A DNA stretch of 63,151 bases, counting the filler, from Stramenopiles sp. TOSAG23-3 (lineage: Eukaryota): the NCBI GenBank assembly GCA_900128585.1. It is 6 parts of 6 records of this genome, joined end to end, with 100 filler letters (N's around TTAATTAATTAA, not from the genome) between each part and the next. Parts side by side here need not be neighbours in the genome. Positions count along the whole stretch, not along the records: positions 31,657 to 42,096 come from LT642817.1; 5 more parts are not named here. One strand, 5' to 3'. Positions 20,728 to 52,729 of the stretch are shown piece after piece (the first letter of the stretch is position 1; each line of letters opens with the position of its first letter). The notes under the pieces were generated by a model. It did not search any database. It was not told where the DNA came from and was given only the letters and a program-made list of their open reading frames with translations. The position numbers and the translations under genes were made by a program.

Positions 20728-21009
20728 GGTGTAGTACACACAACCGAACAAGCACTTGCTCCCCCCCCCCCCCCACGTGATTTTTTATTTGCTTTTAAAA
20801 TAACACCAAGTTAGGACTTTTTTTCCGCGTTTCTTCTTTTTATTTCTTCTGCGTGTAATACTATTTGAAATACTTACTATATTAATATTTATAGAGGTGT
20901 AAATAATATTTTATTCATCATATCTTGGAACTTTGGATTAGGTATTGTAAAATTTTATTTTGTTCTTTTCACCACCACGAATTGCAAAAAACCGTTTGTG
21001 CTTACCCCC

Positions 21010-21109
21010 NNNNNNNNNNNNNNNNNNNNNNNNNNNNNNNNNNNNNNNNNNNNTTAATTAATTAANNNNNNNNNNNNNNNNNNNNNNNNNNNNNNNNNNN
21101 NNNNNNNNN
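21010..21109. other. Artificial scaffold linker
   Basis: 44 N + TTAATTAATTAA + 44 N. Confidence 0.98.
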
Positions 21110-31556: not shown

Positions 31557-31656
31557 NNNNNNNNNNNNNNNNNNNNNNNNNNNNNNNNNNNNNNNNNNNN
31601 TTAATTAATTAANNNNNNNNNNNNNNNNNNNNNNNNNNNNNNNNNNNNNNNNNNNN
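31557..31656. other. Artificial scaffold linker
   Basis: 44 N + TTAATTAATTAA + 44 N. Confidence 0.98.
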
Positions 31657-31731
31657 AGAAGAAAGAAGAAAGAAGAAAGAAGAAAGAAGAAAGAAGAAAG
31701 AAGAAAGAAGAAAGAAGAAAGAAGAAAGAAG
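31657..31731 (+). repeat. (AGAAAGA)n heptamer microsatellite at the scaffold start
   Basis: Directly visible simple repeat. Confidence 0.9.
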
Positions 31732-31946
31732 AGAAGAATGAATGAATAAAAAATGAAAGAAGAAAACCAAGTGGTTGGGATTCAAAAGATATGATTCCCA
31801 TTTCTATAATATAGGTGTTGTAAATTAAATTGTAAACATTGATACACGAAGATATTTCATTCAGTTCATAAACATACCACAATTGCTTTCAGATTTTCAA
31901 CTGAATTCATTTTCCTTTTTTCTTTCTACGACGACTGCAGACCACC

Positions 31947-32984
31947 ATGAAGCTTTCAATGTTTGCTTTGTTGCTGCTTGCCTTGTCCTTGACCTTGGCG
32001 GCGGCGGTACAACCCATTACCGACGGGACTTTCTCGGAAGACGAAGAGTTCGAGCGTTACACCAACGTGTACAACAAGAACTACGAGTCGGAATCTGTCC
32101 GCGCGAAACGAAAGTCCACCTTTTTCAAGAACAAAGAATTGGTCGTCTCCCACAATGCTGAAGCGGCCAAGGGCGTGCACTCGTTTACCCTGGAGTTGAA
32201 CGAATTTGCGGACTTGACCAACCAAGAGTACAGGGAAATGTTCCTCGGAACCAAAGCCTCCACGGGCCGAGTCTCCGCGCACATGGACTCTTACTCTCCG
32301 AAAGGAAGCGACGCGCCAGCAGCGTGGGACTGGAGAACAAACGCGAGCAACGTTGTCGGCCCCGTCAAGAACCAAGGGTCCTGCGGGTCGTGCTGGGCGT
32401 TCTCTGCCGTCGCCGCGATGGAAGGCCAGCTGAACCACAACACAGGAAAAATCCATTCTCTTTCGGAACAAGAGTTGGTCGACTGCGTCCGTGGGGGAAA
32501 AGACACGTGCAGCGAAGGGGGAGAAATGTACGATGGCGAAGAGTACGGGACCACCAACGGGATGGAAGCGGAAGCGGACTACCCGTACCAAGGAAGCTCC
32601 GGGAACAAGTGTGGGTATGATGCGAAAAAGGTGGTACACAAATTCTCAGGTTACACGAACATCACATCGGGAGACGAGAAAGCATTGAAACAGGCCGCGT
32701 ACGAACAGCCCATCATCTCCGTCGGGATCGACGCCAGCTCAATCTGGTTCCAACTGTATTTTGGGGGCGTATACAACGTTAAGTCGTGCTCCTCTACAAA
32801 CCTGGACCATGGTGTCGCCGTCGTTGGGTACGGCACCACTCCTGTCAAAGGGGTCAGCACAGACTTTTGGATGGTCCGTAACAGCTGGGGAAAGATGTGG
32901 GGCATGTCCGGCTACATCATGATGAGCCGCAACAAAAACAACCAGTGCGGCATTGCCACCCAGGCGTCGTTTGCCAAGTTGTAG
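31947..32984 (+). CDS. Cathepsin L-like papain-family cysteine protease (pre-pro-enzyme)
   Basis: Signal peptide and I29 propeptide (LNEFADLT). Catalytic motifs QGSCGSCWAFS, LDHGV and RNSWG. Confidence 0.96.
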   Translation: MKLSMFALLLLALSLTLAAAVQPITDGTFSEDEEFERYTNVYNKNYESESVRAKRKSTFFKNKELVVSHNAEAAKGVHSFTLELNEFADLTNQEYREMFLGTKASTGRVSAHMDSYSPKGSDAPAAWDWRTNASNVVGPVKNQGSCGSCWAFSAVAAMEGQLNHNTGKIHSLSEQELVDCVRGGKDTCSEGGEMYDGEEYGTTNGMEAEADYPYQGSSGNKCGYDAKKVVHKFSGYTNITSGDEKALKQAAYEQPIISVGIDASSIWFQLYFGGVYNVKSCSSTNLDHGVAVVGYGTTPVKGVSTDFWMVRNSWGKMWGMSGYIMMSRNKNNQCGIATQASFAKL

Positions 32985-33140
32985 ACAATGTTTGCTGCTG
33001 TGTTTTGAACGTATTAAGAATTACAAAGTACGAAAATTAATTGTTATACTTCGTACACTTCGTAAATAATTCTCAACTTGATGAGGTGAATGTTTATAAT
33101 AATGCATTTTGGTTTTTTTATTATTTTTATTAAAATTAAA

Positions 33141-33167
33141 AACAAAAATTATTGGCTGTTATTTAAG
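33141..33167 (+). repeat. Partial copy of the dispersed 3'-intergenic element
   Basis: AACAAAAATTATTGGCTGTTATTTAAG. Confidence 0.72.
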
Positions 33168-34755
33168 CACTCGTAATCAATAAAATTTTATTTAGTGACA
33201 CAGTTAAAATTCTTAAATCAATGATGTGCGTCAATACCCGACATAAGCAAGGTTGCATATCCCCCCCCCCCCCCCCCCCCCCCCCCCCATTCACCCAAAG
33301 CGCCAGTTCTACAATGTTATCATCCGGATCATGAAAGAACAGAGACTGCTGGACCCCGTAATCGCAGAATTCAACGTCTGTCGGCTGGCCAGGATGCACT
33401 TGGTGCATTTTCAACCTCTCCCGCAAAAGCCCGCCCAGGTAGGCTTCAACAAATGAGTCTTCGTTCACCCTCAGGGCGAAATGGGCACCTTTGTGGTCCT
33501 GTACCATGGAACTGTTTTTTGGCAAAGGAAGAAGGGCCACGCCTCCGTGGGGGTACGCAGCAGACGGTGGGACGGAAAGAAACGCTGGGGCGCTTGGTTC
33601 AGTCGGGTAAAAGTGCTCCTCCGAAGTATGCATTTTAACGAGTCCCAAAACATTTTCATACCACTGAATGGATCTCTCCACATCAGAGACAACAACGCAC
33701 ACGTGATCCAAGCCCTGCACCTGAAATTTCGGGAGGGGCGCTTCTGATTCTGAGCCTTTGTCAGCTCCACTGTAATGCCCAGTTTTGTAGCGACAGTCCT
33801 GAAACTCGTCCAAAACGCGCCGAAGCTTTTCTTCGGCTCCTATGTCGGACGTGTCGACTACTAAATCGTAAAAATGAGCCTGGCGATAGTGGCACCGTGC
33901 AGAGTACAGAGACATCAAGCGGTGGGTGTCGTCATCATCGCGTCTCGCATTTGCCCGAAATGAGTGCAAAAAGTCGTCCCCGCCCTTCCCTTTCATTTCC
34001 TTTTCCAAGTACGACAGCACGGACACAAGGTCCGGGAAAACAGGCTGTCCCCTCGCCGCAGAGAGCAACGGCTTCACGACTTTGTCCAGTGTCGACTCGT
34101 CGATCTCACGACTGATAAAACGGTACGCCTGCTCCAACGCAGAGCACTCCAAGTAGACCCTTGAAAGGGAAGAAAACCGTTTTTTGCCCTTTAACTCTGG
34201 GTTGTGAACGTCAAAAAGGGCCTGGCAAAAGCTTGCCATAACCGCTGGCTGGCGCCCTTCTATCACCAGCAGGGGGCTATCCGTGGACTGGCCCATTCCC
34301 CCGACGTGCTCCGCAATAATGTCACAAGTTTTGTAGTCTAGTTGGACATCAAAGCTGCCGTCCCCGTCCTGGGCAAGTGCCGATGAAATGTCTCCAATAT
34401 CGACGTTGTGATCTTTTGCCAATGCCCGCATGGCCTCTCCAGTCGACCACCTCCTCGTGCCCAAGTCGATTGAGGGGTGGCTGCAGAAATCGTTTGCAAG
34501 GGTTGACTTTCCAGTCAACTGGTCCCCTGCGACAGCCAGTATGTAGTTTTCGTCTCCTGTGCCAGGTCCACATTGCATCTTCTCCACTAAATTTTCGACG
34601 GCTTCGTTGCCCAAATGGTCGCAAAAACTTTTCAATATAGGTTCAAAAAATAACAAAGACTTTGGATTTCTCCTAGTCGAAAACAATGAAGCAGACGCGC
34701 ACCTGCCCAACATTCTATCAAAACGAACCCTTCTGACACCTGCTGGAAGCAGCAT
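33163..34755 (-). CDS. Cytidylate-kinase-like P-loop domain fused to a glyoxalase/VOC domain; C-terminus uncertain beyond the 28-nt G run
   Basis: Kinase part: GDQLTGKST, STGEAMR, IEGR, RDDDD..R, YDLVVDTS. VOC part: GLDHVCVVVSDVERSIQWYENVLG, HFAL, FFHDPDDNIVEL. The Arg/Ser-rich N-terminus resembles a mitochondrial presequence. Confidence 0.82.
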   Translation of the reverse strand: MLLPAGVRRVRFDRMLGRCASASLFSTRRNPKSLLFFEPILKSFCDHLGNEAVENLVEKMQCGPGTGDENYILAVAGDQLTGKSTLANDFCSHPSIDLGTRRWSTGEAMRALAKDHNVDIGDISSALAQDGDGSFDVQLDYKTCDIIAEHVGGMGQSTDSPLLVIEGRQPAVMASFCQALFDVHNPELKGKKRFSSLSRVYLECSALEQAYRFISREIDESTLDKVVKPLLSAARGQPVFPDLVSVLSYLEKEMKGKGGDDFLHSFRANARRDDDDTHRLMSLYSARCHYRQAHFYDLVVDTSDIGAEEKLRRVLDEFQDCRYKTGHYSGADKGSESEAPLPKFQVQGLDHVCVVVSDVERSIQWYENVLGLVKMHTSEEHFYPTEPSAPAFLSVPPSAAYPHGGVALLPLPKNSSMVQDHKGAHFALRVNEDSFVEAYLGGLLRERLKMHQVHPGQPTDVEFCDYGVQQSLFFHDPDDNIVELALWVNGGGGGGGGGDMQPCLCRVLTHIIDLRILTVSLNKILLITSA

Positions 34756-35377
34756 GACAACTCTTGTCCTTCCCAGGAAAAAAAAGAAAACAATCCAGTA
34801 CAGTTCAATTCACTTCAGTTCAGTCCATTCCTTTTGGATTGAATATTGTATCAATCAGTTCATCTTCCTTCAGATGCCTGTTTTTTTCAAAATTAGTAAA
34901 AGCACTGCGTTTCACTTTGGATCAAAGAAGCATGTATAATTTTCTTGATTCTTTCTTCTTCTTCCTTTTTTTTATTATTTTTTTGTATAAAAAAAAAAAT
35001 AAGAAGAAGAAGAAGAAGAAGAGGAGGAGATATTAAAATAATAGCAGAAGGAAGATTGCTCTGGTGGTGTTGCTATGTACGTTGCGCATCATCATCTTCC
35101 ATTTTATTTTAATAATAATTAATAATTGAGGAGCTCATTATTATTATATGACGACTGAAATCCCAGTTTGTAAGAATCTTTACAAATTAAAATCCTTTAT
35201 ATTATTGAATTATTTACAGCGTAAAGAATTCTACCCGTATCCTCTCTCGTAACCTTGATATATACATATTTTTTTAACGCCCCATCATACTGCTTCTTCT
35301 CTTGTACGTAGGCTACTCGCAGGCTTATCCACTCAATGCGGGGTGTGCGACTACCAGCAAAAAAATATTTGTCATCG

Positions 35378-38300
35378 CTACGTGCCCTCTTCTCCAACAG
35401 GCTGCTTCTCCAACATGCGGTAACTTATTGCCATGCCTGCCACACCACTGAGCGTGCGCTGAACGTACATGTCGCTGTTGATCCCACTCAATGCGGCGTG
35501 TGCGACTGCCTGCAAAAATTTATTTGTCAGGTGCCCCTCGGCGCCAGCTATGATCTTTCGGGGGTGTACTTCCAGGGATGTATTGTAGAAATGGTTCACC
35601 GTGGTTATGGCTTTCAACAAGATCATCATCTTCCATCTCCATCGCTCTACTCCTTTTTTTTCTTTCAATGTCAAAGGGTTCATTTCATCTCCGTTGTACA
35701 GACCGTCGAAAAAGTTCGTTTCCTGATTGACTGCCAGAATAATATCATGCAGGTACCGAAACGGCGGCCGCTTAAGGAGCTTCTCTTCCAAGGGCAGATT
35801 CTGGATGATCTTTCCTAAGAGCTCTTTGGTATCCTCCCATTTCCCTGTGAGCTCTGGCATCGCGTTTGCTGGGGGCACCTGGGGGTGTACAACAGCCATT
35901 TTAGTGTTGGGATTTTCATCTGCTGCGTTCGCAGATCTAGATAAATTTAGAATAAGCCGCAAACGGGGCAAAACCTTTTGAAATCTATTTTTCTCTTTCT
36001 TCCGAATGTTTAAAAGTCTTTTTCGCGCCAAATAAAATGCAGCAAACCCAGCAATTATACTAGCAAAAATGACGAAAATTTGCATAAATATCATAAAAAT
36101 GCCGACTAGCTGAATTTCGTCATTGGAAGGGCTGGACATAATAATAAGTATGGACAAAAAGTTGATTACAGTGGCACTGAAGGATGTCTGAGCCAGCCAA
36201 AATACAACTTTATTTCGTTGTGGTTCAAACAAATTTAAAGTAATCAGTGCAGTTATACACACTAGTATGGAGACAATTGCTTGCATCAATGGTTGGTCTT
36301 GTAAATATATCACTGCACCTGTAAGAATGGTCTTACGAACGATTTCGTGCACTTCCCAAAATTCGCTGCCCCGTCTAAATCGTTCGTACAAGAAGCCAAT
36401 TTTTTGCTTTGTCCGGACAGTGTGTAACTCTTTCCGGTAAATCCAAATATACACTGACAAAAAGAACGGAAGTCCAATGCTGAATGCAAACAAAACCAAT
36501 AGCACAATTGGATACGTCGACACGTAATTTTTGGAAATATTGCACTCTAGAGACATATCCTTCTTTAAAAAATTACGGCCAGCCACGTTCTTGCAGTTAA
36601 AGTACTGAAAAACCATGCGAGTAACAGGAGTGTGGATTAATATAAATAGTTGTATGGTGAAAGACAACGATCTACTCGTCGATTTGTGCCGAATGTGCCA
36701 TTTTACGACCGTTAGCTCGTTTATATGGACCAAATCAGATTGTAATACCTTCACAAATTCGTTTTCATACAAACCTGTCGCTTCACAATTTAATTTTTTG
36801 AAAATGGCTTTTGCTTCCTCAATACTGTACTTTGTACTTCCCAACGCCCTCACTACGCGCCGGAACTGCTTTTGGTTTATGCACCCTTTTTGTTCTTCAT
36901 CGATTAAATAAAATATTCGGCGCAGAATGTCTTCGAAGTGCATATGCTTTTCTATGTTTGACATTCCTTTCAATTTACGTTGCCCCTTCCTTGTGCCAAG
37001 ACAATACCACAACAAGCCGATAACAATTGCCATAATAGGCCAAGATGCAGTCGCCACAAATCGGCTCGAAAAGTCTACACCCTTAATACATGTTGCTCCT
37101 GTCATGGACAACAGATCAACATTGACGAATTGAAAATGCTGCAAAAACTTGGTGAAGTTCTCTGGCCATGTTATTTCGAAAATAGAAGGGAGACTACTAT
37201 TAATCTGAAGAAAGTCCACATTAATTTTCATAATACGAAGGATATCACGCCACAATGATTTGTATTTCAATATTTTCTTTTTCAAGTAATAAAGCGCGTA
37301 GAGAGATAAAGATGCCACAAAAAGGGCAACGACAAACAGGTAGATAGGAGACGCATCATTGCAACTGACACAATCGTCCATTTGTGGACCATAACCTGGG
37401 GCGCAAAGTTCGCATAAAACCCCAGTCCTTTTCCCACGACAGCCTTCCGCGAGACAATTGGCTGGAGTAGTACATTTTACAAAAGCATTTTCAAACGAGG
37501 GTTCCCAGGGCGCACGCCAGTAACCGTCGATGGGTTTCATCCACAGTGCAGCTTTGTTTCTATGCCCAGTTTTGTTTGGCATGACACAAGATGCTCCCTC
37601 AGGGCATACAATACATTTTGATAAGATCATCGCTGTCGAATCAAAAATAGGGTAAAAATCATTTTTGCATATACACGCGGCAAAACTGTGTGATCCAGAA
37701 ACACCTCGCGTATCTGAATTTGCTATGTGAGAATCACAATTTTGGCACTCTGACAAAAATGCCGACCCTAATTGTGTGCCTACGGTATCAGGCACGCACG
37801 GATCACAGACCAGCTGCCCAGGTTTTTCTTGGTAACTCCCTTGTTCGCACAACGTACATTCTTCCTGACCGTCGAGGGCGTTGTATTGCCCTTGAAGACA
37901 TTCGAGACAGTCTACAAACGCGGTTGCCCCAATATTTGGTCCGTATCTTCCTGGAATACAGCTTTGACAGACACCATCTTTTGTTAAACTAAATCTACCT
38001 TTGTTGCATCCTCTGCTGTTTACTGATACACGCATTGATATAAATGCCATGTCCTTATACTTTTCATCAACAGAAGTACCACTGTGATAAATTTCACAAC
38101 TTCCGCTTGGTGCAAATTTTGGAAATTCCTCTCCATCATCTTTCGCCTTGATCACAATTTCTTGCTTTTGGTCAAAATTCGACACTGTAAACAGTAAATT
38201 GCCCCCTGCTTCTACAGAACACCGGCTACTTGAAGAGACTGCAATCGTGACCGTTTCGGATTGTGGAGCATCGGAGAGAGAAACCTCATAACTGTAGGTT

Positions 38301-41300
38301 TCCTCCTCAAGCAAGCTTAGATCTTGCGTGAGGACTCCAGTCAAGTGGGGCTTAGACGTGTCAATATCCCCTGCAATAAATATTCGAAGTGCCGAACTGC
38401 GTTGACTGTGCAGTTCTGGTACCCCCAACAGCTTGCGAAGAACCGATACATACGCGAACCCGCCATATCCGCCACCACTATAAATGCATGTAAAATTGTT
38501 ATTGGAAAACAAGAGTTCGTCTTCAATTGTGCAAAGATCTACCACCCCGCCGGATTTTTCAAATTCTACTCTGACTGCTGCAGCATCAGTTCCGAAGTTA
38601 TTTCCATAAACAACAACAGGTCCCGTTTCTACTGGAATTATGCTGGGGGTTACGGATATTATGTTTGGAAAAGCATAATTAAACTCAACGTATTCTACTT
38701 TTGTGTGTGGGAAACGAAGGACATTGGGCTGCCCTTCAGTAAACAGTCGCAGTTGCATGTTTTGCCCGTGGCCGTGTGGAAACACCAAGCTTGCGTTCTG
38801 ATCCAATTGCGAAAAACCTTTCCCCCTGCTTCCGTATCTTGACGATAGTGAGGGTGTTATGTAACCAATAATTAAACGGGTGGGAAAGTCAATGCAATCA
38901 TCTACATTTTTCAAGTCTGTTACCACAATGTTATCAGTAGCAGCATTGGCACGCGAGATGCTTAACGATAGTGCTATAGAGTTGGCAGAGAGATCGATTG
39001 CGCATTTCGGTGCATAAAATATTGGAAGTTCTTCCTTTAAAACCTGGCAAGAATCGCACGAAAATGTGTACGGTCTGTTCAAATTTACAGACACCGTCGT
39101 TGCAAAAACTCTCGAGTTAGACTTCATGTCTATTGCTGCCGACTGTGCCAGGATGCTATCGTCTGGGTTACTTTTCTCCACAGAAACTTGGTCCAGTGTA
39201 AGTTCTGAGTTCTCTGCACCATACACAACTCCGCCTTCCAATGCAGTGTTTAAAGTCATATTACACCCGCGAAAAGCAGCTTTATTTTCTACTCCCCCCA
39301 TGTGCAATACCCCACCTTTCGAAGTACCTGTATTTCTGTTAAAATGGCACTGCAGTAAGCTTACAGAGGATCTTCCATCCATATTAATCGCACCGCCCCA
39401 CTCACTTGCACTATTATTTTCAAAGAGAGTATTGAACGCTTCAAAATTAGTTGAGTCGTCTAAATAGACTGCCGCACCCGATCGTGCAGAACAATCAGAA
39501 ATACTAGTATTGTTTATGCTAAATCTACTGTACTGTGATCCATACATTAAACCTCCAAAATAACCATTTGACGAAACAAAAAATCCATTGTGTGCAGTGA
39601 ACAATGCTTCATTGGTGGCATATATTGAGCCTCCAAACGCACCGTCGGCATGGTCAGAAAGCATATCGAATGCAACTGTACGTGCAAGATCCTTCAGGGC
39701 TATATCACCCCCACCTCCTTCAGCAAAATTGTACGAGAATGTTACTGCAGTCAAGGTGAGTGTACCACTTTCTTGTGAAAACAAAACCCCGCCATTGCCT
39801 AAATTTTTGGCCACATTGTTCCTAAAGACAGAATTCTTTATACTAATACGATTATCGCTTGTAAAAATAACCCCACCGTTTCCATTTGCAGAGTTAAAAG
39901 AGCCCTGTATATTTTCAAAGTTTCCTGTGGTTTCACTACCTACCATTGAAAATACGCCACCAGCTGCTGCTGTGTTGCTCGCAAACTGAGAATTCTTTAT
40001 CTCAGCATGCAACCGACCATTGCCTTCAGAGATTATATAGATTGGGCTCTGTGAAGTTATTTCACCATTATTTGAAACGATGGAGTCTTCCATGGTGAGA
40101 CTACTTGACCTCACCTTTGCGATTATTTTGATTGTGCTGCTTCCGTGTTTACCATTTTTGTCAAAGGTGTTATTTATCAGAGATATGTCGACATCTTCAG
40201 CATACAAGGCCTGCGGGTTATCCTTCCACAAACACGTGTTGCATTCCACAGTCCCATAACTAGGGTAAACATGAAGGCCCGGAAGAGTAGCTCCGTTGTT
40301 AATAAGGATGTCTTTCATTAGAAGATACGACGAATTTAGTTTCATGAAGGCCATCGATTCTCCAAATAATGAAGATATTTTTGCATTCACGGAGACAAGC
40401 TTGTGCTGGTTGTGGTAAATCGTTGCATTATTAAATGTTACTGAACTGTTTACCAGTTTCAAAAATGTCCCCGGCTGCTTTAAATGAATCTCTGTTGCGT
40501 CAAAGACTAGATTATGGTACAGCCATACAGTTATAGTTTTCGCATTGCAAACACAGTTCTTAAATCGAAGAATAATATCATTTGCGGGATTGCTCTGCAG
40601 GGTTGAAAGAGAAAGTTCAAAAGAGTGCACTTCAAAACCGCTAATGTTTGCATGTATCCCCTTCCGGACCAGAGAAGAATTGGACCCGGTTGCATTTTCA
40701 AAATAAACAGGTGCATGAAGCGTTGACCACTGAAGTTGTACTCTATCAAAATGAAGCGACTCATCGAGTGTGTACAAAGTGCAGTTTTGCTCAAAATACG
40801 GATATTGGTCCTTAGAGTAATCACATGCTGATTTAAACGTCCCCCTCTCGTAATTTGAGTACAATGCAATCTCTTGTATAAGCACATCGACAAAACGGGC
40901 ATGACTGTGCAAGATATCAATCGTTAATGTGTACGAAAACGATTTTATAACAACGTGTTTAAAAGTGATATGAGATGCATTTTTTGCAAGGATAGCGGAG
41001 GAGGTGGAAGATGCGGCAATTGTCATATTTTGTAATTTCACGATAGCATGGTACAAATATAGACTTTTCCCTACTGAAAAGAGGGTTACATTTGCTCCTT
41101 GTCCACTCACATTCAGTATTTTGTCAGAAACCGTTAGCGTAGTTGCAAGATGATGTTGTTCGCTGCCGTATAATTGTATGGGCAAGCATACAGTCATTGT
41201 GTGGCATGCAACTTGAACAGCGCGCTCTATTGTAGCAAACGGCTCGTTCAGATTCGCAACTTTGCTTGTATCGTTCGCATTTGGTTGAGAAGAAACAACG

Positions 41301-42094
41301 ACATTTCGAAGCAAACAGTCATAATTGTCGTAAAAACACCTCAAATTGTCGCATTCATGGTTGCACACTCCGTTGCCCAGCAACGTTTCAGAGCAAGACC
41401 CCATTTCAGGCGTTAATGCCAACGCATTGCATCTCGCAGGTGTGTACCGAAAGAGTGTACTCGGAGCATAGTGCATCGATTCGTTTCTTACGTCAATATC
41501 TCTAAACGTTAACGTTACCTCCAACAATGACGGCTCAACAAAGCTGTCCATATCAAACGTGGAATCAAACATGCACCACCAGTGGGAGTAGTTTCCATTT
41601 GTATTATTTATAGTTGCATTCATGCTTACTCCCTCACTAAGCCAGCACTTTGGCGTGTACGGCAGCGACACATTTGGGTGGATATTCTTTACTGCAAATG
41701 ACACAAATATTTGGCCTTTCGTGGTCGTCCCTTTCCAAATAGAGGTAAAGTTGCATATAGCGATGGCATTTCCTGTTCCCAAAAATTTAACGCCAAGAAC
41801 GTCTTCGCAGTTTTTTCTCACAACCAACATGCTACCTGGTTGCAATACCATAGAAGTGGCATTAGCGACAATCCCATCTAAATGGTACAATTTTCCTGCT
41901 CTCAACGATACCTCTTGTAAGGGTAATATTGATAAGACTCCGTTTAACTGTAGTTCATCACCATACGGTAAATATAACGAACTAATGCCATATATCGATG
42001 CTTTTTCTTGCAGCAACAGAATCTTGACTCCCTCGGTACCCTCTTTGCCACCCGATGCGCCATTGGCACCATTTAACTCTATGATAATATTTAG
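35378..42094 (-). CDS. Giant multi-pass membrane protein (LNR, beta-helix/Pmp-like repeats, IPT-like, Cys-rich ephrin-receptor-like repeats, multi-TM with EF-hands, C-terminal IFT54/TRAF3IP1 CH domain); 5'-truncated
   Basis: LNR LGNGVCNHECDNLRCFYDNYDC. Many N.A..GG(A/V)I repeats. C..G.Y..C..C repeats. TM motifs KINVDFLQI..WP and GFLYERF..FWEVHEIVRK. CH motif EKLLKRPPFRYLHDII. The frame stays open to the scaffold end. Confidence 0.85.
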   Translation of the reverse strand, partial: LNIIIELNGANGASGGKEGTEGVKILLLQEKASIYGISSLYLPYGDELQLNGVLSILPLQEVSLRAGKLYHLDGIVANATSMVLQPGSMLVVRKNCEDVLGVKFLGTGNAIAICNFTSIWKGTTTKGQIFVSFAVKNIHPNVSLPYTPKCWLSEGVSMNATINNTNGNYSHWWCMFDSTFDMDSFVEPSLLEVTLTFRDIDVRNESMHYAPSTLFRYTPARCNALALTPEMGSCSETLLGNGVCNHECDNLRCFYDNYDCLLRNVVVSSQPNANDTSKVANLNEPFATIERAVQVACHTMTVCLPIQLYGSEQHHLATTLTVSDKILNVSGQGANVTLFSVGKSLYLYHAIVKLQNMTIAASSTSSAILAKNASHITFKHVVIKSFSYTLTIDILHSHARFVDVLIQEIALYSNYERGTFKSACDYSKDQYPYFEQNCTLYTLDESLHFDRVQLQWSTLHAPVYFENATGSNSSLVRKGIHANISGFEVHSFELSLSTLQSNPANDIILRFKNCVCNAKTITVWLYHNLVFDATEIHLKQPGTFLKLVNSSVTFNNATIYHNQHKLVSVNAKISSLFGESMAFMKLNSSYLLMKDILINNGATLPGLHVYPSYGTVECNTCLWKDNPQALYAEDVDISLINNTFDKNGKHGSSTIKIIAKVRSSSLTMEDSIVSNNGEITSQSPIYIISEGNGRLHAEIKNSQFASNTAAAGGVFSMVGSETTGNFENIQGSFNSANGNGGVIFTSDNRISIKNSVFRNNVAKNLGNGGVLFSQESGTLTLTAVTFSYNFAEGGGGDIALKDLARTVAFDMLSDHADGAFGGSIYATNEALFTAHNGFFVSSNGYFGGLMYGSQYSRFSINNTSISDCSARSGAAVYLDDSTNFEAFNTLFENNSASEWGGAINMDGRSSVSLLQCHFNRNTGTSKGGVLHMGGVENKAAFRGCNMTLNTALEGGVVYGAENSELTLDQVSVEKSNPDDSILAQSAAIDMKSNSRVFATTVSVNLNRPYTFSCDSCQVLKEELPIFYAPKCAIDLSANSIALSLSISRANAATDNIVVTDLKNVDDCIDFPTRLIIGYITPSLSSRYGSRGKGFSQLDQNASLVFPHGHGQNMQLRLFTEGQPNVLRFPHTKVEYVEFNYAFPNIISVTPSIIPVETGPVVVYGNNFGTDAAAVRVEFEKSGGVVDLCTIEDELLFSNNNFTCIYSGGGYGGFAYVSVLRKLLGVPELHSQRSSALRIFIAGDIDTSKPHLTGVLTQDLSLLEEETYSYEVSLSDAPQSETVTIAVSSSSRCSVEAGGNLLFTVSNFDQKQEIVIKAKDDGEEFPKFAPSGSCEIYHSGTSVDEKYKDMAFISMRVSVNSRGCNKGRFSLTKDGVCQSCIPGRYGPNIGATAFVDCLECLQGQYNALDGQEECTLCEQGSYQEKPGQLVCDPCVPDTVGTQLGSAFLSECQNCDSHIANSDTRGVSGSHSFAACICKNDFYPIFDSTAMILSKCIVCPEGASCVMPNKTGHRNKAALWMKPIDGYWRAPWEPSFENAFVKCTTPANCLAEGCRGKRTGVLCELCAPGYGPQMDDCVSCNDASPIYLFVVALFVASLSLYALYYLKKKILKYKSLWRDILRIMKINVDFLQINSSLPSIFEITWPENFTKFLQHFQFVNVDLLSMTGATCIKGVDFSSRFVATASWPIMAIVIGLLWYCLGTRKGQRKLKGMSNIEKHMHFEDILRRIFYLIDEEQKGCINQKQFRRVVRALGSTKYSIEEAKAIFKKLNCEATGLYENEFVKVLQSDLVHINELTVVKWHIRHKSTSRSLSFTIQLFILIHTPVTRMVFQYFNCKNVAGRNFLKKDMSLECNISKNYVSTYPIVLLVLFAFSIGLPFFLSVYIWIYRKELHTVRTKQKIGFLYERFRRGSEFWEVHEIVRKTILTGAVIYLQDQPLMQAIVSILVCITALITLNLFEPQRNKVVFWLAQTSFSATVINFLSILIIMSSPSNDEIQLVGIFMIFMQIFVIFASIIAGFAAFYLARKRLLNIRKKEKNRFQKVLPRLRLILNLSRSANAADENPNTKMAVVHPQVPPANAMPELTGKWEDTKELLGKIIQNLPLEEKLLKRPPFRYLHDIILAVNQETNFFDGLYNGDEMNPLTLKEKKGVERWRWKMMILLKAITTVNHFYNTSLEVHPRKIIAGAEGHLTNKFLQAVAHAALSGINSDMYVQRTLSGVAGMAISYRMLEKQPVGEEGT

Positions 42095-42096
42095 GC

Positions 42097-42196
42097 NNNN
42101 NNNNNNNNNNNNNNNNNNNNNNNNNNNNNNNNNNNNNNNNTTAATTAATTAANNNNNNNNNNNNNNNNNNNNNNNNNNNNNNNNNNNNNNNNNNNN
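42097..42196. other. Artificial scaffold linker
   Basis: 44 N + TTAATTAATTAA + 44 N. Confidence 0.98.
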
Positions 42197-42717
42197 ATTA
42201 CAGTTTAGATAAACTGGAATATAAAAGATAAAATATGAAGTCAGTTCATTTTTTATAATAATATAATTCATAATATTTTTTTTTAATAAATTATTTACTC
42301 GCTCAGCAGAAAAATAGGAAATCCCCCCATTTTAAAAAATAGAGTCTTTAGTATATATATCCTTAACATATGGAGAAAAAAGAAGAATTTTTAGTCTTTC
42401 TTATATAGTATAAGAATACAAATAAATACATTATCCAAGCACTGTTTTAAGGCGATTATATACATTGTAATATCACTGAGCGGTATGAAAAAGAGTAGAG
42501 AGGTAGGTCGGTGGTCGGTGGGGCGGGGGGTGGTGGTGGGGATTATTATTTTTTGTGGTGGTATTGATGATGAAAGTTGATGGTGTCTGATTATGATTTC
42601 TCTACATACTGTATTCCCAGTCCATGGCACTTCCCCGAAGGTAAAATTACCACCAATGTGCCACGAAAGCCACGTAACCAACCACTGAATCGCTAGCCGA
42701 AGCGTAACCACCGTATT

Positions 42718-44565
42718 ATGATGGCGAATCAAAGCAATCCGAGGTCAAAAAGTATACTTGATAAATTTAATGATGTGATACGTTACAGTGCCCTCGAAGA
42801 AGAAGAAGACATTGCACCATACGTTGAAGAAACTGAAGATAATGTACCGAATCCTTTTGAACAGAAGGTTATTATATTAGTGCTTGTCTTTATGTATACA
42901 TTCCAAAGCTTTGCCCTCCAATTTCCGACGGTTATAAGTGTATACATGTCTCATGAAATTGAACAGTGTAAGGATCGTTATTATGTAGAAAAGTATCTGG
43001 ACAATGTGATGTGGCCGGTTTCCTTTAAAATTCTTTTTGCTCCTATAGTAGACTTGGTTCCATTATGTTGTTTCAAGAAGACATATCACCGTAGAGGTTA
43101 CATTTATATCACTGGCATAATGACAGCAACTATATTGTTCTTGCTAGCATACAATTGGTCCTCTATTGACCCTCATAAGTCATGCCCTGACGCCCCATTG
43201 TTATTCGTATACCTTTTTGGAATTATATTATTTACGGCAATAGGAGGCGTTGCACTCGACGGTTTAGCAATATTGGCGTTGCAGGGTAAAAACCTTGGCT
43301 ATTTTTCAATGATATCAAAAGTTGGAACCGTGGTCGGAAAAAATGGTATCAGCACTGCGTTTCTTTTTCTTGAGAAAACAATTGGTGTCAGGATATGTTA
43401 TGTAATAGTTGGATCTTGTTTCTTACTTTCATTATTTTTCTTACGATTTATGAAGGAACAAGTGCAAGAAAGTGCAAACACAAATGCGTTGAAATCGCAC
43501 AAAGAGTCAAGAACATTGTTGACTGCATACAAACTTTTGTATCGAGTGATTTGCAATAGGCATGCTTTGTTTTTTGGCTTTGCAGGCATGGCATTCTATA
43601 GAATTTGGAGGGGCGCATTCGTTTCAGCCGTTGATGTAACAAATATTGGGTATACAAAAAGCGAAGTGGCGCTTGAAGGTATCATAGAGTTTGTGCCGAC
43701 ACTCCTCTCCTTATATTTAATTACAAAATATCTTGGTGCTCGTGTCAATGCAATAAAAAAGCTCAAGTATCTTTATCCTGTGATGATTGTCGGTTGCGGG
43801 TTGTTTGTTCTTACGATAATAATTCCACCGTACATGAACGGTACAACAAGTAGTGATCTAAAAGAAAAATGGGTTTTTCCGTTTAGAACTATTGTAAATA
43901 TAATTGCTACGCCATTGAAAAATATTCCTGGATTGTTGATAATGGCGCATGCATCTATGGTGACTCCTGTAAACTGCCCAGGAACATTTATGACCTTCCT
44001 GCGAACAATGGATTCTTTGGGGCGCAATTCCCTGATTACTGTGCGCAATTATATACGGAATATGTTAACAACATTAGCAGAAGAGAATGGGTATGGTATT
44101 TGCAGTGGTTCGAAAGACAACTTGTATCAAGGCAGACTTACAGAATGTATCAATAATACTCTGTTTACTAAGACTGGCCAGACGGATTTTGTAAGCTGTA
44201 ATACTCGTAATGCAACATTAATACGATTTTGTGGAAAAGAAGTTTGTCGTCCTGGTCAATATTGCAGTAAGTGGGGCGATGGATATGTTTTGTTCAGTGT
44301 TCTTGCATTATGTTTTGGTGTTATGTATTATATGTTGTTCTGGTTTGTTATTGCTAAAAGAATTGATAAGAAGAAGATAGATTTTGATCCAAATAATACG
44401 GATGAAAGAATATCGTGCTGCCCAATTTATTGCTGTGGCGAAAGTATGTATGACGATTACAATGATGTTTATCATACAATAGGTTATGACGACGACGACC
44501 AACCAAAAGGACCCTACATGCCGCTTCTGTTTAGCATGCCTCGAATTGAGGGCACTGAAGAATAA
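42718..44565 (+). CDS. MFS transporter, acetyl-CoA transporter (SLC33A1/AmpG-like) family
   Basis: WPVSFKILFAPIVD, RRGYI, ALDGLAI, GTFMTFL, DGY and about 11-12 hydrophobic helices. The extreme C-terminus is uncertain. Confidence 0.8.
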   Translation: MMANQSNPRSKSILDKFNDVIRYSALEEEEDIAPYVEETEDNVPNPFEQKVIILVLVFMYTFQSFALQFPTVISVYMSHEIEQCKDRYYVEKYLDNVMWPVSFKILFAPIVDLVPLCCFKKTYHRRGYIYITGIMTATILFLLAYNWSSIDPHKSCPDAPLLFVYLFGIILFTAIGGVALDGLAILALQGKNLGYFSMISKVGTVVGKNGISTAFLFLEKTIGVRICYVIVGSCFLLSLFFLRFMKEQVQESANTNALKSHKESRTLLTAYKLLYRVICNRHALFFGFAGMAFYRIWRGAFVSAVDVTNIGYTKSEVALEGIIEFVPTLLSLYLITKYLGARVNAIKKLKYLYPVMIVGCGLFVLTIIIPPYMNGTTSSDLKEKWVFPFRTIVNIIATPLKNIPGLLIMAHASMVTPVNCPGTFMTFLRTMDSLGRNSLITVRNYIRNMLTTLAEENGYGICSGSKDNLYQGRLTECINNTLFTKTGQTDFVSCNTRNATLIRFCGKEVCRPGQYCSKWGDGYVLFSVLALCFGVMYYMLFWFVIAKRIDKKKIDFDPNNTDERISCCPIYCCGESMYDDYNDVYHTIGYDDDDQPKGPYMPLLFSMPRIEGTEE

Positions 44566-46854: not shown

Positions 46855-49800
46855 TTACAAAACAGTAGTAGTACTGTTCGTCTTGTCAGAACCAAGAGAT
46901 CTCAGGGAACTTTGACTGACCTTGCTACTTTCTGAAGAATTAATTGTGTCCCCTGAGTGTGCCATAGAACGCTTGCCTGCCAACTGCTGTTTCCAATTAC
47001 GTTTCTTCGCGTCGAAGTACCACTGGGTACACAAAATTCCAATTCGGCTTGAGACAGGGTAAACCTGCCCACTTTCCCTCGCCAAACGCAGCAGGTGTAA
47101 TTCGTTTTTGAAATGATCGGCATCGACTATGTTGAGATCGATTGGATCCGACTGTTCCCCTCCATCCACTTTTGAGTTTTTAAAGAGGCCTGCAGCTTCT
47201 TCCTTCTTGCGGGCGGCATTTTCTTCAAAGGCTTTGATCTGAAGGAACTGCGAGTATGCCCATGTTTCATTGGCCAGTTCTTTGACACTTTCATACCCCT
47301 CTGTCATGACAGCAATAATAAGGTTCAAAAGCATGATAACGCCGTAAAAAATTACAATCGCATGAAGCAAAGGACCCAAAACACTGTTTGATTGATGAGC
47401 ATCAGACCAGGGAAGTCCGTTTATTGTAACCCCTCCTAGCATTGTCATAAGCGATCTAAAAGGAGTCGAGTAGTCGTCCATCTCGACACCAAAGCCAACA
47501 ATACTCAAAACGCTGAATGCAACCATGTATACCAACAGAATAATGAAGTACGAAAATAGCTTGCTCAACTGCCTCGAAATAATAATAGTCATCCGCGCCA
47601 CTGCTGGAATCCAGTCCAGCAAATCCAGCAGCCGCAGACTTGCTACAAATAGTGTAACGGAACACATAGACGCATAAAATTCCATTGTCTTGTTCAAGTG
47701 ATACAACCTTGCTGGGAGCACATCGGCATGGCTCGAACCTTTCACGTCTCCCAGGGTTGTCTCTATCTGCAAGCGTACGATTATGACGGCAATAAGCAAA
47801 AGGCTTGAGAGCGATTTGACGGCCTTCCGCAAATTCGTGCACACTAGATAGATGCTCCGAGGAAACCTTCGGTTCGAGCAACACATGATGCAATGAGGTA
47901 CCTGGTCTTTCCGCAAACGCCATTTACCTTCATCTCCGTGGTTGATCCTGTAGAAGCCCGCACCGTACGTTCCATTCGGACGCCAACAGAACTTATACGG
48001 CTTCGCGTTTGCCGCTGTTGGCTGGTAGAAAAAGAACTCACGCCGTTCCCCGACGTCCTTCAACACGTACGTCTTTTTCGCCGTTGCGGACCAGCTTTGC
48101 ATGTATTCGGATTTTATCAAATCCACGGACGTGAGACAAAACACAACAAGAAATAAGATGTCGCATACCAAGGAGAATGTCGTGTTTTGTTGCCTCCAGA
48201 CTTGGACCTCGTATGATGGAATAATCGCCCCGGCGGAAAAAAACTCAACTGAGAAAGTTTGAGAGGCAACCAAACCCTCCTGAACGTTCGATACAACAAA
48301 TTCGACAAAAACCACCCTTGTGCTGAGATCTATCCACTGGTCTCTCTCTAACCGCTGCAACAACATCAGGGCTTCTGTCAGATTGTTGGGAAAGAGAACA
48401 GAGTGCCCTGATCCTGGATAAAACATAGTTCCTTGGCTGCCCAGAACGCTGGGCACATCCGATGCCTCCCACTTGTAAGCGTCACCTGTCAAACCGACAA
48501 AAGTTTCTTTACTCTCCGTCTCTGTCGAATATTGAGGGAAACAGCAAGCCTTCGCTTCAGATTCGTTTCCACCTTTTCTCTCGAACGAGGCTTCGGGGTA
48601 CGTGCCACGAACGGCCTCGTTCTCTCCCGAAGGACACGATTGGCAGGCAACTCGAAGTTGGCGCAACCGGAGGCGCCCGACCATTTTAATGTGCCGCACC
48701 ACCGGCAAGTAATCCCCCGTGTTGTACGGTTCCAAAGGGCTCCCTGCTTGAACTGGTCGTTCGTAAAACAATCCTGTGTCATGAATTCCCCCGAGGACGG
48801 CTATTTTCATAAAATTGAAAAAATCTTGGCGCGTGTCTGTGTCCATAAACCGCTTGTTTGGCTGCTCAGAAAAGTCGTAAGGCTTTCCCAAATACCTAGC
48901 GACTATTGCATGGTGCAACAAGTGCGAGGTTTGGTCGTTCAACCCAAGGCGCACAATAGTCGACAAGAAAAAGAGTACAAACAGGATGAACCATCTTACA
49001 AATTGTCGCACCCGTGGCCATTTTGCAACCTCATTCCATTTCATTTCTACCGCTTTCTGAGTACGAGCGTAACCCCAAATGTGGTCTTTCCACCCATGCG
49101 GCCTCTCCGCTGACCCAATCAGTTTCGGCCTCACTTTTTCCAGCCATTCTCTCTTGCTAATGTCGTCAAACGGTTCCACGCCGCTGTTGCTGGTCGCCTC
49201 CAAATCTGCATTGTTTGCAAGCAGGTAATGTACGACGTCGTTTTGAACAGTTCGCCGACGACGAACGTCCTCCGCTGTTGCCGACAATGACTCGGACACA
49301 AAACCGACAAAATGCTTGTCCCATTGCATAATGTTTTCCCTAATTTTCTTGGCTAACGGATCGACTGGTATTGGAGAGTGCTGACCAGCTGGGGTAGCCA
49401 AGCACTCTACTACCATTTGGTCCAAATTGCCGTCGTCGTCAAGTTTTTTACACTCTGTCCACCCGCCTATCAGCTGTTCGTTAAACCACACTTCCGGTAC
49501 AGTCGTGCCTGCCATCGAGGCGTGCCGATGAGGGTATTGCTCCAAGTCAACGTTGTGGAACTTCACATTCTTCTTTAAAAAGAGATCTTTCGCCCTGCTG
49601 CAGAATGTGCACCCTGGGAGAGTGTATATTAGAATCTGTCCTCCAAACAGGCACGAGTGACTTGAGCTGCTCTTTCTCCGAACCGTCTCCCCTGGCTTGG
49701 TTGTTGACCGCTGCCGTTTTCCAGTGATCAGCTGGACGCGTTTCCACCGTCTCCAGAACTTTGAGATCAATTTTGCACACTCTACATACTGCTTCATGGT

Positions 49801-52206
49801 GTGTGAATCCTTGTAAGCTTCAAACGCGTAATGCAAGGCGCTCTTCCCATAGTAATCTCTTTTGTTAATGTGGGCCCCTCCGGCAACAAGCGCGACTGCA
49901 GTACTCAGTGAGTACGCATATTTGCAAGCCATCATCAACGGCGACCATCCCGTCTCGTTGACGGCCGTGGCAGCAGCATCGTTTATCAGAAGAATGTTCA
50001 CGATGTCAACATGTCCCATCTTTGCCGCGTAGTGAAGTGCAGTGTTGCCATCGCTATCGCGCGCGCCCACCGGGGCACCGGCTTGCATTAGCAACTTTAC
50101 AAGCTTGGTATTTTCGTTACTCATACCACACACCAAATGCAGGGCCGTGCACCCCTTCGTCAGACCTTCTCGCGCCAGATATTTGCGACCTTTGACCCTC
50201 AAGCCAAGGTTAACAACCCTTGAACCTCTCTGAAATAAGTTTGCCTTCACTGTAGAGACGTGTTCTTTTACCTTCAGCAGCCGGTCGACTATGCCGATGT
50301 TTTGCTCTTTGCAAGCAATCATCATTGCATTGATGCCATCATGGCTCTGTGCATTCAAGTTAACGTCAGTGTGAAACACGGCCCTTGCCTGGACTGGATC
50401 GGTAAGAACCCCAACGTCGTCCTTGGACCAGCCTTGTGCATAACTCAGCAGCCAGTCAACAACTTCGGCGTCGCCCCAAGCGCATGCGTACATTAGTGCC
50501 GTCCAACCGTTTGCGTCTCTTACGTTTGGGGCAGGCACAAACACTCGATATCCATTTTTGTCCCGATACTGGTTCTGCAATAGTTCCCGGCAGACCGGTT
50601 TGTTCCGCTTTACAACGGCAAAGAGCAAGCTCGTTATCACTTGAGTGCCGAATTTTCGAGAGAAGCTTCCTTGGGGCGCAAACGGGTGACGATTTTTTAC
50701 TACGACCTGAATTGGCAGGTCTATCTGCCTCCACCCAGATGGTATCCGCTGTTCCTCTTTCTCTTGCTCCAATGTTGCAATGTTCGTAACCAAGCGATAA
50801 ACGTTTGCTTCGCCGATCCAGTTGTCCATAATTTTCTTCACGTGGAGCGGCAGGTTAGTGTTCGATTCGGCGCCCTTTTGCCTACAAATTCCGATCATAT
50901 GTGACGCGCACGCTTCCGCAAGAGACCTTAAGTAGGGGGCTGGTACAAACCGCGCCAAAGGGTTGGTTCGGTCGGTCTCTTCTTTGCTTTCTGGGCCCGA
51001 ATCATTTTTCGGTGCCGATGCGTGCTTTTGCTTCAACGAAGTTGCGTTCTTGCTCCTGCGGAGGCTAAGCTGTCGTTTCGGGGCACTGGACTTCACAAAC
51101 ACCGAGAAGAATGATGAAATGGCACCAATGCCCCTGGCTTCTGCTTTCTCAGCGTCGTCTTTACGGGCCGAACCATTTTCTTCCTCGTCTTCCATCTCCC
51201 GGAGTTTCTTAGCTTTTCCTGCGGTGATGTGTTTCCTCAAATGCCCGTAAATGTTTTCAAAATATTCGATCGGTGGGAACGCAAAGCCCGTCAGAAAGGA
51301 CTGCAAGTACTCTTTCAAGTGGCCCATTCGTTGGTCTCGCACATCCAGCTCGCTCGTTCGCTCGTCCCATTTGACGTACTGGCCCAAAAACCGGCCACAG
51401 GTTTCTTGTTCTATGGAAAATAAACGAAGAACTTCTTCCGCCTCTGTCAGCAGGCTTGACCCCGCGCCTTCTCCCGATGTTGCGTCCTTCATGAGCTGCT
51501 CGTCGACAACCTCCATCCCGCTGTCAATCCTTTTCCTCATTTCCGTGGTCTCGACGCGCTGATTTTCTGCCTTCAAACTTTGTATTAGAAACTGTGCATA
51601 CGTCGGGGGTTTGGTTCGAGGGGCCTGAAACGCGCATTTTAGCTGAAAGAGCATCCACATTGCCAAGGGGATTCGCCCGTGGTACTTTTCAATCATTGGG
51701 TTGAACGCTTCGTAGTGCACATCCCGGACGGACTCGTACGTGGCACCACCGACGAGGGCTTTCACCATCGCTCCGAAAATGGCTGTTTGGGTAGTGGAAC
51801 AGTGGCACCCTATGCTGATGCTGCAGTGCGCGTCGTTTTTAACCCCTGCTGGGTCGTAACTCCTCTCTGCTGGGATGAAAATCTGGCTGCTGTAGCCATC
51901 TTCCTCGAAGGAAATTTTGTAGAACCCAATATAGTTCATGCCCTCGACGAGTCTTGGCAACGGCTCGTAGGTGCACTCGGTTGGCGGCGGCACCTGCCGC
52001 AGCAGGATGCTCTCTCTAAGCCGGGTCGAAGATACGTTCGTTTAGTTGTACGCCACCCCAGATTCCATAAAATCGATCTTCATTTCATACTCTCCCGGCG
52101 CGCCTTCCTTCTCGACAACATGGTACAAGTTCGGGACGGAGTCATGGTCAAGGTCCAGGGCCCCTTTTAAACCGTCTGGGCGAAACGGTACTGGCGTCTC
52201 CGACAT
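46855..52206 (-). CDS. Ankyrin-repeat + glutaredoxin + polycystin-2 (TRPP)-type cation channel; the 5' part 52206-52045 is separated by an in-frame TAA or a 36-nt intron
   Basis: Ankyrins GWTALMYAC, GNTALHYAA, GWSPLMMAC. Grx IYTLPGCTFCSRAK...TVPEVWFNEQLIGG. PKD2 motifs LRLRQLRV, YPGSG, WIDLSTRVVFVEF and LLNLIIAVMTEGY. The main ORF is 46855-51993. Confidence 0.88.
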
Positions 52207-52629: not shown

Positions 52630-52729
52630 NNNNNNNNNNNNNNNNNNNNNNNNNNNNNNNNNNNNNNNNNNNNTTAATTAATTAANNNNNNNNNNNNNNN
52701 NNNNNNNNNNNNNNNNNNNNNNNNNNNNN
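52630..52729. other. Artificial scaffold linker
   Basis: 44 N + TTAATTAATTAA + 44 N. Confidence 0.98.

Follow-up and report, generated by a model that had tools for sequence, protein, structure and literature searches.

The stretch of DNA analysed here (63,151 nucleotides (nt), filler included, from Stramenopiles sp. TOSAG23-3, GenBank assembly GCA_900128585.1; hereafter the window) carries on its minus strand a long open reading frame (ORF) at 35378–42096, with the stop codon at 35378–35380, which encodes a giant membrane protein ending in a calponin-homology (CH) domain of the type found in the intraflagellar transport (IFT) protein IFT54, also named TRAF3IP1 or MIP-T3. Read from 42094, the frame yields 2238 amino acids (aa) without a stop, and this length is a minimum. 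The source contig of the gene (31657–42096) ends at an artificial joint, N44-TTAATTAATTAA-N44 (42097–42196, no strand), and because the frame is still open at this joint, the gene is 5′-truncated and its N-terminus, together with any signal peptide, is lost. We are highly confident that the protein consists of three sections: an adhesin-like, Cys-rich ectodomain, a multi-pass membrane module and a tail made of the CH cassette (all features of the gene given below lie on the minus strand). The original prediction for this locus had placed the CH domain after the last transmembrane helix in the same ORF; the frame 35378–42094 is indeed continuous, and the peptides quoted in its support (WEDTKELLGKII, EKLLKRPPFRYLHDII, FFDGLY and KIIAGAEGHLTNKFLQ) are all present in the 2238-aa translation. 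The ORF itself is real, but its start is not complete. Points that go beyond that prediction are the TRP(PF06011)-like/EF-hand module, the 5′ truncation, the tandem arrangement of the CH unit, its descent from CH2 of an IFT54 protein that has two CH domains, and the existence of relatives that are built alike.

The C-terminal domain (aa 2079–2218; 35441–35860, with the Pfam core at 35489–35839) is a genuine IFT54-type CH domain. The profile of the MIP-T3 CH domain (PF10243), the family to which it had been assigned, matches aa 2086–2202 over profile positions 2–112 of 113 with 91 bits against a cutoff of 23.4 (E = 6.5e-26). By sequence, the domain also matches the solved CH structures of mouse (5fmu, E = 2.1e-22, 42% identity), human (2eqo) and Chlamydomonas (5fmt) IFT54, as well as the IFT54 chain of the train structure 8bd7. 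An AlphaFold model of the CH domain alone (36 sequences; pLDDT 88.5, pTM 0.81) superimposes on 5fmu with a target-normalised TM-score of 0.90 and an rmsd (root-mean-square deviation) of 1.5–1.6 Å over 132 columns, and on 5fmt with a TM-score of 0.87–0.89 and an rmsd of 1.3 Å. The sites implicated in tubulin binding are largely kept as well. In mouse IFT54, the CH triple mutant KKK64/66/69EEE is reported to lose tubulin binding, while single charge reversals of R18, K25, K29, R33 and R94 in the basic patch are reported to leave it intact (Taschner et al., PMC4818760). The cassette has K, K and K at the columns of mouse K64, K66 and K69, and K, R, R and K at those of K25, K29, R33 and R94. It thus shares with IFT54, an IFT-B2 subunit, the CH family PF10243, the fold and the Lys triad. 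The differences from IFT54 are also clear. The 2238-aa protein ends about 20 aa past the CH fold and has no IFT54 linker region, and the coiled coil MIP-T3_C (PF17749), which is present in the IFT54-like proteins P0009, P0014, P0016 and P0085, finds no Pfam match in it at E ≤ 0.1, in line with the predicted absence of a C-terminal coiled coil. Because MIP-T3_C, which pairs with IFT20, is absent, the usual way of serving as an IFT-B2 subunit is closed to the protein. We rejected its identity as an IFT54 orthologue on this ground and on its layout, since the CH domain is N-terminal in a soluble protein in IFT54, whereas here it is C-terminal, behind a multi-pass membrane region. Furthermore, the cassette is tandemly repeated and contains a 6-aa insert that is shared only with the relative P0002.

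In the ectodomain, two kinds of module pass the Pfam cutoffs, namely an LNR (Notch-type) module at aa 233–260 (41315–41398; PF00066, 25.0 bits against 21.2) and, at aa 1402–1450, Ephrin_rec_like (PF07699, 29.7 bits against 23.1), which belongs to a Cys-rich Ephrin_rec_like/DUF7630 stalk identified with Pfam (aa 1363–1578; 37361–38008), where DUF7630 itself is a weaker match (aa 1538–1578). Putative PMP-like beta-helix repeats occupy aa ~700–960 (39215–39997). Ten GGx[IVLF] and seven FxxN motifs occur about 27 aa apart at aa 644–954, with GGx[IVLF] at aa 712–954, and this spacing would fit a PMP-like beta-helix, while the Pfam match to Chlam_PMP (PF02415) stays below the cutoff (14.9 bits against 20.6). 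A TIG/IPT-like domain at aa 1143–1219 (38438–38668) is likewise sub-cutoff (18.1 bits against 20.9). Hence the LNR and Cys-rich parts of the predicted ectodomain held up, whereas its IPT-like and beta-helix parts have only sub-cutoff Pfam matches, the latter with fitting motifs. The first 1578 aa contain 52 Cys and are rich in glycosylation sequons (27 NxS/T), and the last 220 aa contain no Cys, and 11 of the 32 residues that follow the last hydrophobic helix are K or R (basic juxtamembrane stretch and linker, aa 2019–2078; 35861–36040). Because the Cys residues and sequons lie in the ectodomain, the tail is free of Cys and the juxtamembrane stretch is basic, we favour an extracellular N-terminal part and a tail that is probably cytosolic. 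By description only, the ectodomain can be likened to that of fibrocystin/PKHD1-type ciliary receptors, which are giant and contain TIG/IPT and parallel beta-helix repeats; fibrocystin is set apart, again by description, in that it crosses the membrane once, carries a short sequence for ciliary targeting and lacks a CH domain.

The membrane part is not a single anchor but a multi-pass module (aa 1579–2018; 36041–37360) of an Ephrin_rec_like/EF-hand/TRP(PF06011)-like family, with an EF-hand pair inserted between its helices. Hydropathy over aa 1575–2014 shows six clear peaks and one weaker segment judged by eye. The AlphaFold model of aa 1560–2238 (9 sequences; mean pLDDT 63.9, with 70–88 across most of the membrane part) consists of long helices with an inserted helical domain. 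This domain, model residues 151–233 (aa 1710–1792; 36719–36967), has the fold of an EF-hand pair (VIA-align Z 8–9.3, rmsd 2.3–2.9 Å over 73–83 residues), and the EF-hand Pfam matches, at aa 1724–1774, are sub-cutoff (19–21.4 bits against 30). The canonical Ca-binding loop of an EF-hand reads D-x-D/N/S-x-D/N/S-G-x-I/V-x-x-x-E; most relatives keep it as D-x-D-x-S/N-G-x-I/V-D-x-x-E, and in the present protein it is degenerate. In a VIA-align search against 48,161 chains the EF-hand pair alone was matched, and the membrane helices found no convincing solved fold; helical-bundle rows (Z 7–9.5, rmsd 4–14 Å) were discounted as lying within the stated noise of the tool. A Foldseek search of the PDB with the model of 679 aa returned just weak rows for the IFT54 CH domain. 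The lack of a structural match does not show the membrane fold to be new.

The family of the membrane module is widespread among eukaryotes. With the C-terminal 679 aa as the query, a word-based search found seven longer relatives, and with the membrane module it found 14 shorter ones; the nearest relatives of the module (P0175, P0003 and P0004, 35–38% identity) end 40–90 aa past the last helix and have no CH domain. In a scan of 16 family members, EF-hands occurred in 10–11, Ephrin_rec_like in eight and PF06011 at E ≤ 0.05 in five, with a best PF06011 E-value of 1.8e-6 and all scores under the 28.5-bit cutoff. The PF06011 match in the 2238-aa protein spans profile positions 236–422 of 426, and the best relative, P0002, reaches 26.6 bits, also below 28.5. 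P0180 bears a precomputed PF06011 annotation, and neighbours found with a language model fall into clusters with Ephrin_rec_like, EF-hand and, at a score of 0.90, PF06011, the last being present in 42% of the members of that Atlas cluster. As the matches are sub-cutoff throughout, we did not assign the module to PF06011 and call it TRP(PF06011)-like instead; the label ‘channel’ would rest on weak homology. Fungal PF06011 proteins, such as S. pombe Pkd2 (which we take to belong to this family), yeast Flc and Aspergillus TrpR, share the predicted layout of the present protein, in which a large N-terminal part lies outside the cell, several passes cross the membrane and a tail lies in the cytosol, and the weak matches recur in the C-terminal half of the profile (five of the 16 members, E ≤ 0.05). 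They differ in that the scores here are sub-cutoff, the giant ectodomain is of other make-up, an EF-hand pair lies between the helices, a CH tail is present and no solved fold was matched. S. pombe Pkd2 is reported to be Ca-permeable and stretch-activated (PMC9727806), and the membrane module may plausibly be a Ca-permeable or mechanosensitive channel. As an analogy, NOMPC/TRPN is reported to be a microtubule-tethered mechanosensitive channel (PMC8186909), so that both would be channel-like membrane proteins with a cytosolic module possibly tying them to microtubules; there is no homology, however, and NOMPC uses an ankyrin-repeat spring where the present protein has a CH domain on a linker of about 60 aa. 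The parallels with NOMPC and Pkd2 are leads and not evidence.

The join between the membrane module and the CH domain recurs in independent sequences. The stretch 35300–36600 was found in 20 of the 24 listed public runs, which come from 13 studies; six are RNA libraries, and two of the runs may be the source itself. Four of the public runs (X3, X4, X10 and X12) were aligned to 34900–37400. In X3 and X4, both of them marine metagenomes, a DNA contig (35845–36849 and 35850–36461, respectively) runs from the membrane region into the beginning of the CH unit. A contig from the RNA library X10 (35269–36006) runs from the 3′ untranslated region (UTR) through the entire CH domain into the juxtamembrane stretch, and the polyA library X12 tiles 35198–36362 with its sole break at the repeat boundary, one contig (35885–36118) spanning the junction. 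In addition, P0188 (ENA, 238 aa, from a contig of 1707 nt) contains the last helix, the linker, the CH domain and an identical C-terminal end. The junction, for which support from reads had been the obvious question, is therefore crossed by independent DNA and RNA contigs and by an independent protein record. RNA libraries can contain DNA, and the gaps in their cover over the stretch were not taken as transcript ends; the RNA contigs are consistent with transcription without proving it, and the gene is probably transcribed. A second record of X10, a transcript-like RNA-library contig of 1806 nt, matches just 35586–35603 and 35826–35869 (5 mismatches) and departs from the window to either side; it may come from a paralogue or represent the canonical IFT54 gene of a related organism.

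In natural DNA, the CH unit is present in tandem. Contigs in both DNA runs (X3 and X4) pass from 35409 back to 35879 with 42 intervening letters, the sides being 35 and 30 nt long, and this makes the CH unit a head-to-tail repeat of 513 nt (171 aa), which is composed of the 471 nt at 35409–35879 and a 42-nt inter-copy linker absent from the window. The predicted CH tail thus exists, but the window holds one copy of what is a tandem repeat in nature. P0012 (eukprot, 344 aa, 98% identical) has two CH units and the same C-terminal end as the 2238-aa protein, the two CH units of P0002 are 98.6% identical to one another, and a metagenome contig, L001, starts inside the inter-copy linker. Single-copy forms are also seen, in the X10 contig and in P0188, and could be real alleles or collapsed assemblies. 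The depth over the CH unit, 2.4 times that of the flanks in X3 and 3.3 times in X4, was not used as a copy number, since it is summed over organisms and paralogues.

The membrane–CH architecture is shared by at least three other proteins, which are unannotated in public protein sets: P0002 (Ephrin_rec_like, EF-hand, TRP and two CH domains), P0010 (EF-hand, TRP and CH) and P0011 (membrane helices and CH). The architecture search that had been proposed thus brought up further cases. A HMMER search with the cassette against 1.84 billion representatives gave 1136 proteins at E ≤ 0.001, among which the best 150 were listed. In a phmmer analysis of 174 proteins, near-duplicates and fragments included, one CH domain was found in 86, two in 76 and three in five, and many proteins of 650–740 aa have CH1 at about 10–130, CH2 at about 230–380 and then MIP-T3_C. 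Examples of such two-CH IFT54 proteins are P0009, P0013, P0014, P0016, P0028 and P0036, and there are many more. Three of the 30 proteins looked up carried an organism name (Pythium insidiosum, Aureoumbra lagunensis and Chrysophaeum taylorii); all three have two CH domains and all are stramenopiles. IFT54 of stramenopiles appears to bear two, at times three, CH domains. MIP-T3 CH domains also occur in other contexts. P0059 (1038 aa, JGI metagenome) has a different membrane–CH design, with a Cys- and Thr-rich N-terminal part of about 310 aa, one strong hydrophobic helix at 313–331 with the residues YRRKQHRK behind it, a region resembling a coiled coil and, after that, three MIP-T3 CH domains that have diverged; P0123 (787 aa) combines an N-terminal MIP-T3 CH domain with ankyrin repeats; and P0115 is a long protein (1208 aa) without a hydrophobic segment and with a C-terminal MIP-T3 CH domain.

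Of the 219 CH segments extracted, 110 went into a tree made with a quick IQ-TREE run (LG+G4, SH-aLRT support only). They include all nine segments pre-labelled as fusions, those of the multi-CH proteins as far as P0050 and those of the first 26 proteins with a single CH domain; near-duplicates within clusters, and segments that cover under 95 positions of the profile, had been taken out beforehand. Two of the pre-labelled proteins were not counted as membrane fusions, P0033 because it is a fragment of just 143 aa and P0115 because it has no hydrophobic segment. In the tree, the 2238-aa protein, P0012 and P0002 are grouped (SH-aLRT 100), and this group joins P0010/P0011, P0033 and the CH2 of P0009 (96), with the CH2 of P0013 joining next (94); the CH1 domains of P0009 and P0013 are placed elsewhere (99). 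The cassette is 61% identical to CH2 of P0009 and 38% identical to its CH1, and the alignment shows the shared lead-in MP.LTG.WEDT as well as the motifs VNHFY and LTNKFLQAVAHAALSG. Among the two-CH IFT54 proteins P0009 and P0013, the cassette is thus nearest to CH2, including the lead-in. As judged from the tree and the identities, the cassette is a descendant of CH2 in an IFT54 protein that has two CH domains. Between the 2238-aa protein and P0002, the membrane modules are 22% identical and the CH domains, with the shared 6-aa insert, 83%, while between P0002 and P0010 the corresponding values are 50% and 53%. These identities are incongruent, and the cassette sits on at least two very different members of the membrane family. 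Its mobility is supported by this incongruence and by its GC3 (G+C content at third codon positions), which departs from that of the gene body (values below). The simplest reading is that a copy of CH2 from the IFT54 of this lineage became attached to the tail of a single gene of the membrane family, that transfer or conversion later brought the cassette to a paralogue of very different sequence, and that unequal exchange has been duplicating and eroding it ever since; the order of these events is presumed.

We assume that the 2238-aa protein is a microtubule-tethered receptor or channel encoded by a real gene of a marine stramenopile-like protist, a statement to which, taken whole, we give an even chance. 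It would be a giant multi-pass surface protein with the ectodomain outside and one or more copies of the CH cassette in the cytosol, where the cassette would act as an autonomous tubulin or microtubule anchor and fasten the receptor or channel to microtubules of the axoneme, the roots or the cortex, so that forces or ligands acting on the ectodomain could be read against a fixed cytoskeletal point. An autonomous microtubule anchor is favoured because the fold and the Lys triad are kept while the parts that would place the protein in IFT-B are missing. Several observations weigh against this interpretation. On the side of the membrane module, the hydropathy scan yielded no consistent topology or exact number of passes, AlphaFold modelled the membrane part with just moderate confidence, and the Foldseek search of the PDB had no match at E ≤ 0.001 to a solved fold for the module. 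PF06011 is sub-cutoff in the protein (16.7 bits against 28.5, E = 0.0034), and the first EF-hand loop, D-E-E-Q-K-G-C-I-N-Q-K-Q, whose fifth residue is K and whose twelfth is Q, is degenerate. On the side of the CH domain, Q stands at the R18 column and the 6-aa insert VERWRW lies between columns 68 and 69, inside the Lys triad, so the tubulin affinity could differ. Moreover, tubulin binding by the IFT54 CH domain is known solely in vitro, and the domain is reported to be dispensable for ciliogenesis in human cells and Chlamydomonas (PMC10320715). Tubulin binding, localisation and channel function are predictions for this protein, and the flagellar location and the role in prey sensing raised by the original prediction are likewise hypotheses.

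The main rival explanation, which we regard as a tentative possibility, is that the CH tail serves as a transport tag. By binding the orthologue of WDR60, the intermediate chain of dynein-2, or some other component of the IFT train, it would let the membrane protein ride IFT trains into or out of the flagellum. The human IFT54 CH domain is reported to bind the dynein-2 subunit WDR60 in pull-downs (PMC10320715), and it is on this report that the originally proposed ‘IFT-motor tether’ stands as a possibility. The descent of the cassette from an IFT protein also agrees with a transport tag, and tandem copies would give multivalent, weak and reversible binding, as suits cargo. However, in the same report the WDR60 contact concerns human proteins only and the effects of CH deletion are marginal (PMC10320715), and the CH domain of IFT54 is described as unmodelled in train structures (PMC10191852). 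In addition, the Lys triad for tubulin is conserved although a transport tag would not need it, and a flagellar location is an assumption here.

It is improbable that the fusion is young, neutral or decaying, with the cassette and its 3′ UTR being a dispersed repeat that landed on the 3′ ends of genes and has no function. The composition does shift abruptly at the cassette, where GC3 is 0.613 against 0.394 and 0.422 in the rest of the gene, and in this the cassette resembles most genes of the window (0.56–0.70). Relics of more copies lie past the stop codon, a 46-nt relic immediately after it (35329–35374, minus strand, 89% identical to 35484–35529) and, further downstream, a 15-nt exact match, and the copy number is variable. 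The cassette with its 3′ UTR was also met beside other genes. L001, the one confirmed locus among 216 pattern matches in the search of metagenome contigs, carries them at 1–717 with 92% DNA identity to 35147–35879 of the window, and continues into genes for a Methyltransf_22 methyltransferase and a CRAL/TRIO protein, unlike the genes downstream in the window. Because these downstream genes differ, the cassette occupies more than one locus or genome arrangement, and L001 is a second locus or a rearranged relative; the contig starts within the repeat and yields neither gene body nor N-terminus. Against the absence of function, in-frame membrane–CH fusions are retained in both P0002 and P0010, two proteins with just 50% identity left between their membrane modules, the cassette is much better conserved than its carrier (83% against 22% between the 2238-aa protein and P0002), the frames are intact and RNA-library contigs cover the cassette.

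A highly improbable explanation is that translation from the internal start M2066 produces the cassette chiefly as a small soluble protein of its own, which would give two functionally distinct products. P0012 from eukprot begins exactly at M2066 and contains two CH copies, and the shift in composition could mark a separate unit. However, short gene models frequently begin at contig ends, and from the last helix to M2066 there is neither a stop codon nor an intergenic space. The RNA-library contigs X10 35269–36006 and X12 35885–36118 extend upstream across M2066, and P0002, P0010, P0011 and P0188 read through the equivalent point. An assembly artefact, that is, a chimera of a membrane gene and an IFT54 fragment, might be suspected, since the window is a chain of contigs, each about 10 kb long, and the repetitive CH unit is a point where assemblies break, but it is next to negligible because the join recurs in two independent metagenome runs, two RNA libraries and the independent ENA protein, and the architecture recurs in diverged relatives.

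The combination of a membrane protein with an IFT54 CH domain seems to be undescribed and to be a new domain architecture made from known parts. A literature search with subscription journals and supplements outside its range found no description of such a fusion and, with phrases for two, tandem or duplicated CH domains, no mention of a two-CH IFT54; MIP-T3 CH domains in other membrane or ankyrin-repeat proteins were likewise not found in print, subscription journals again lying outside the search. The finding bears on the role of the IFT54 CH domain, which is unsettled, since the domain is seen to bind WDR60 in pull-downs and tubulin in vitro, although cilia are still made when it is missing. 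Cut from the rest of IFT54 and kept, tandem and conserved, on the tails of receptors, it offers a clean test of what the domain does by its own. There may also be a direct coupling of receptors to microtubules in particle-catching flagellates, and the carrier lineage consists of abundant marine protists, the stretch being found in runs from 13 studies. In evolutionary terms, the multi-CH IFT54 of stramenopiles and the presence of the CH family in other membrane proteins and in ankyrin-repeat proteins are of interest.

A wider generalisation, which is doubtful at present, is that the IFT54 CH domain is a self-sufficient cassette for targeting to microtubules or the flagellum that was repeatedly grafted, in tandem, onto giant channel-like receptors, the result being a NOMPC-like mechanosensor or a sensor of prey contact. 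In such a sensor, the ectodomain would grip a particle, the CH array would grip a microtubule and the TRP-like module would sense the strain, and a tethered sensor would have evolved independently in marine stramenopile flagellates. If this were true, a natural experiment would reveal what the IFT54 CH domain does alone.

The remainder of the window consists of contigs of about 10 kb joined by N44-TTAATTAATTAA-N44 spacers at 10460–10559, 21010–21109, 31557–31656, 42097–42196 and 52630–52729, which have stops in all six frames, and there is a further N46 gap at 18803–18848; gene order across the spacers is without meaning. The genes of the window appear to fall into two compositional classes, with a GC3 of about 0.35–0.42 in two genes (42697–44562, plus strand, and the body of the 2238-aa gene) and 0.56–0.70 in eight other frames. 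Downstream of the 2238-aa gene lie glyoxalase-like and cathepsin genes. On another contig, a 1728-aa frame (46858–52041, minus strand) combines ankyrin repeats and glutaredoxin with Polycystin and PKD-type cation channel domains, and this pairing of a redox domain with polycystin is unusual. A 1095-aa frame (3336–6620, minus strand) contains adenylate kinase, EF-hand and IQ motifs, a combination that recalls flagellar adenylate kinases. Finally, a gene for an MGDG-synthase-like glycosyltransferase (19360–20784, minus strand; PF06925, E = 1.9e-21) could hint at a host with a present or former plastid.

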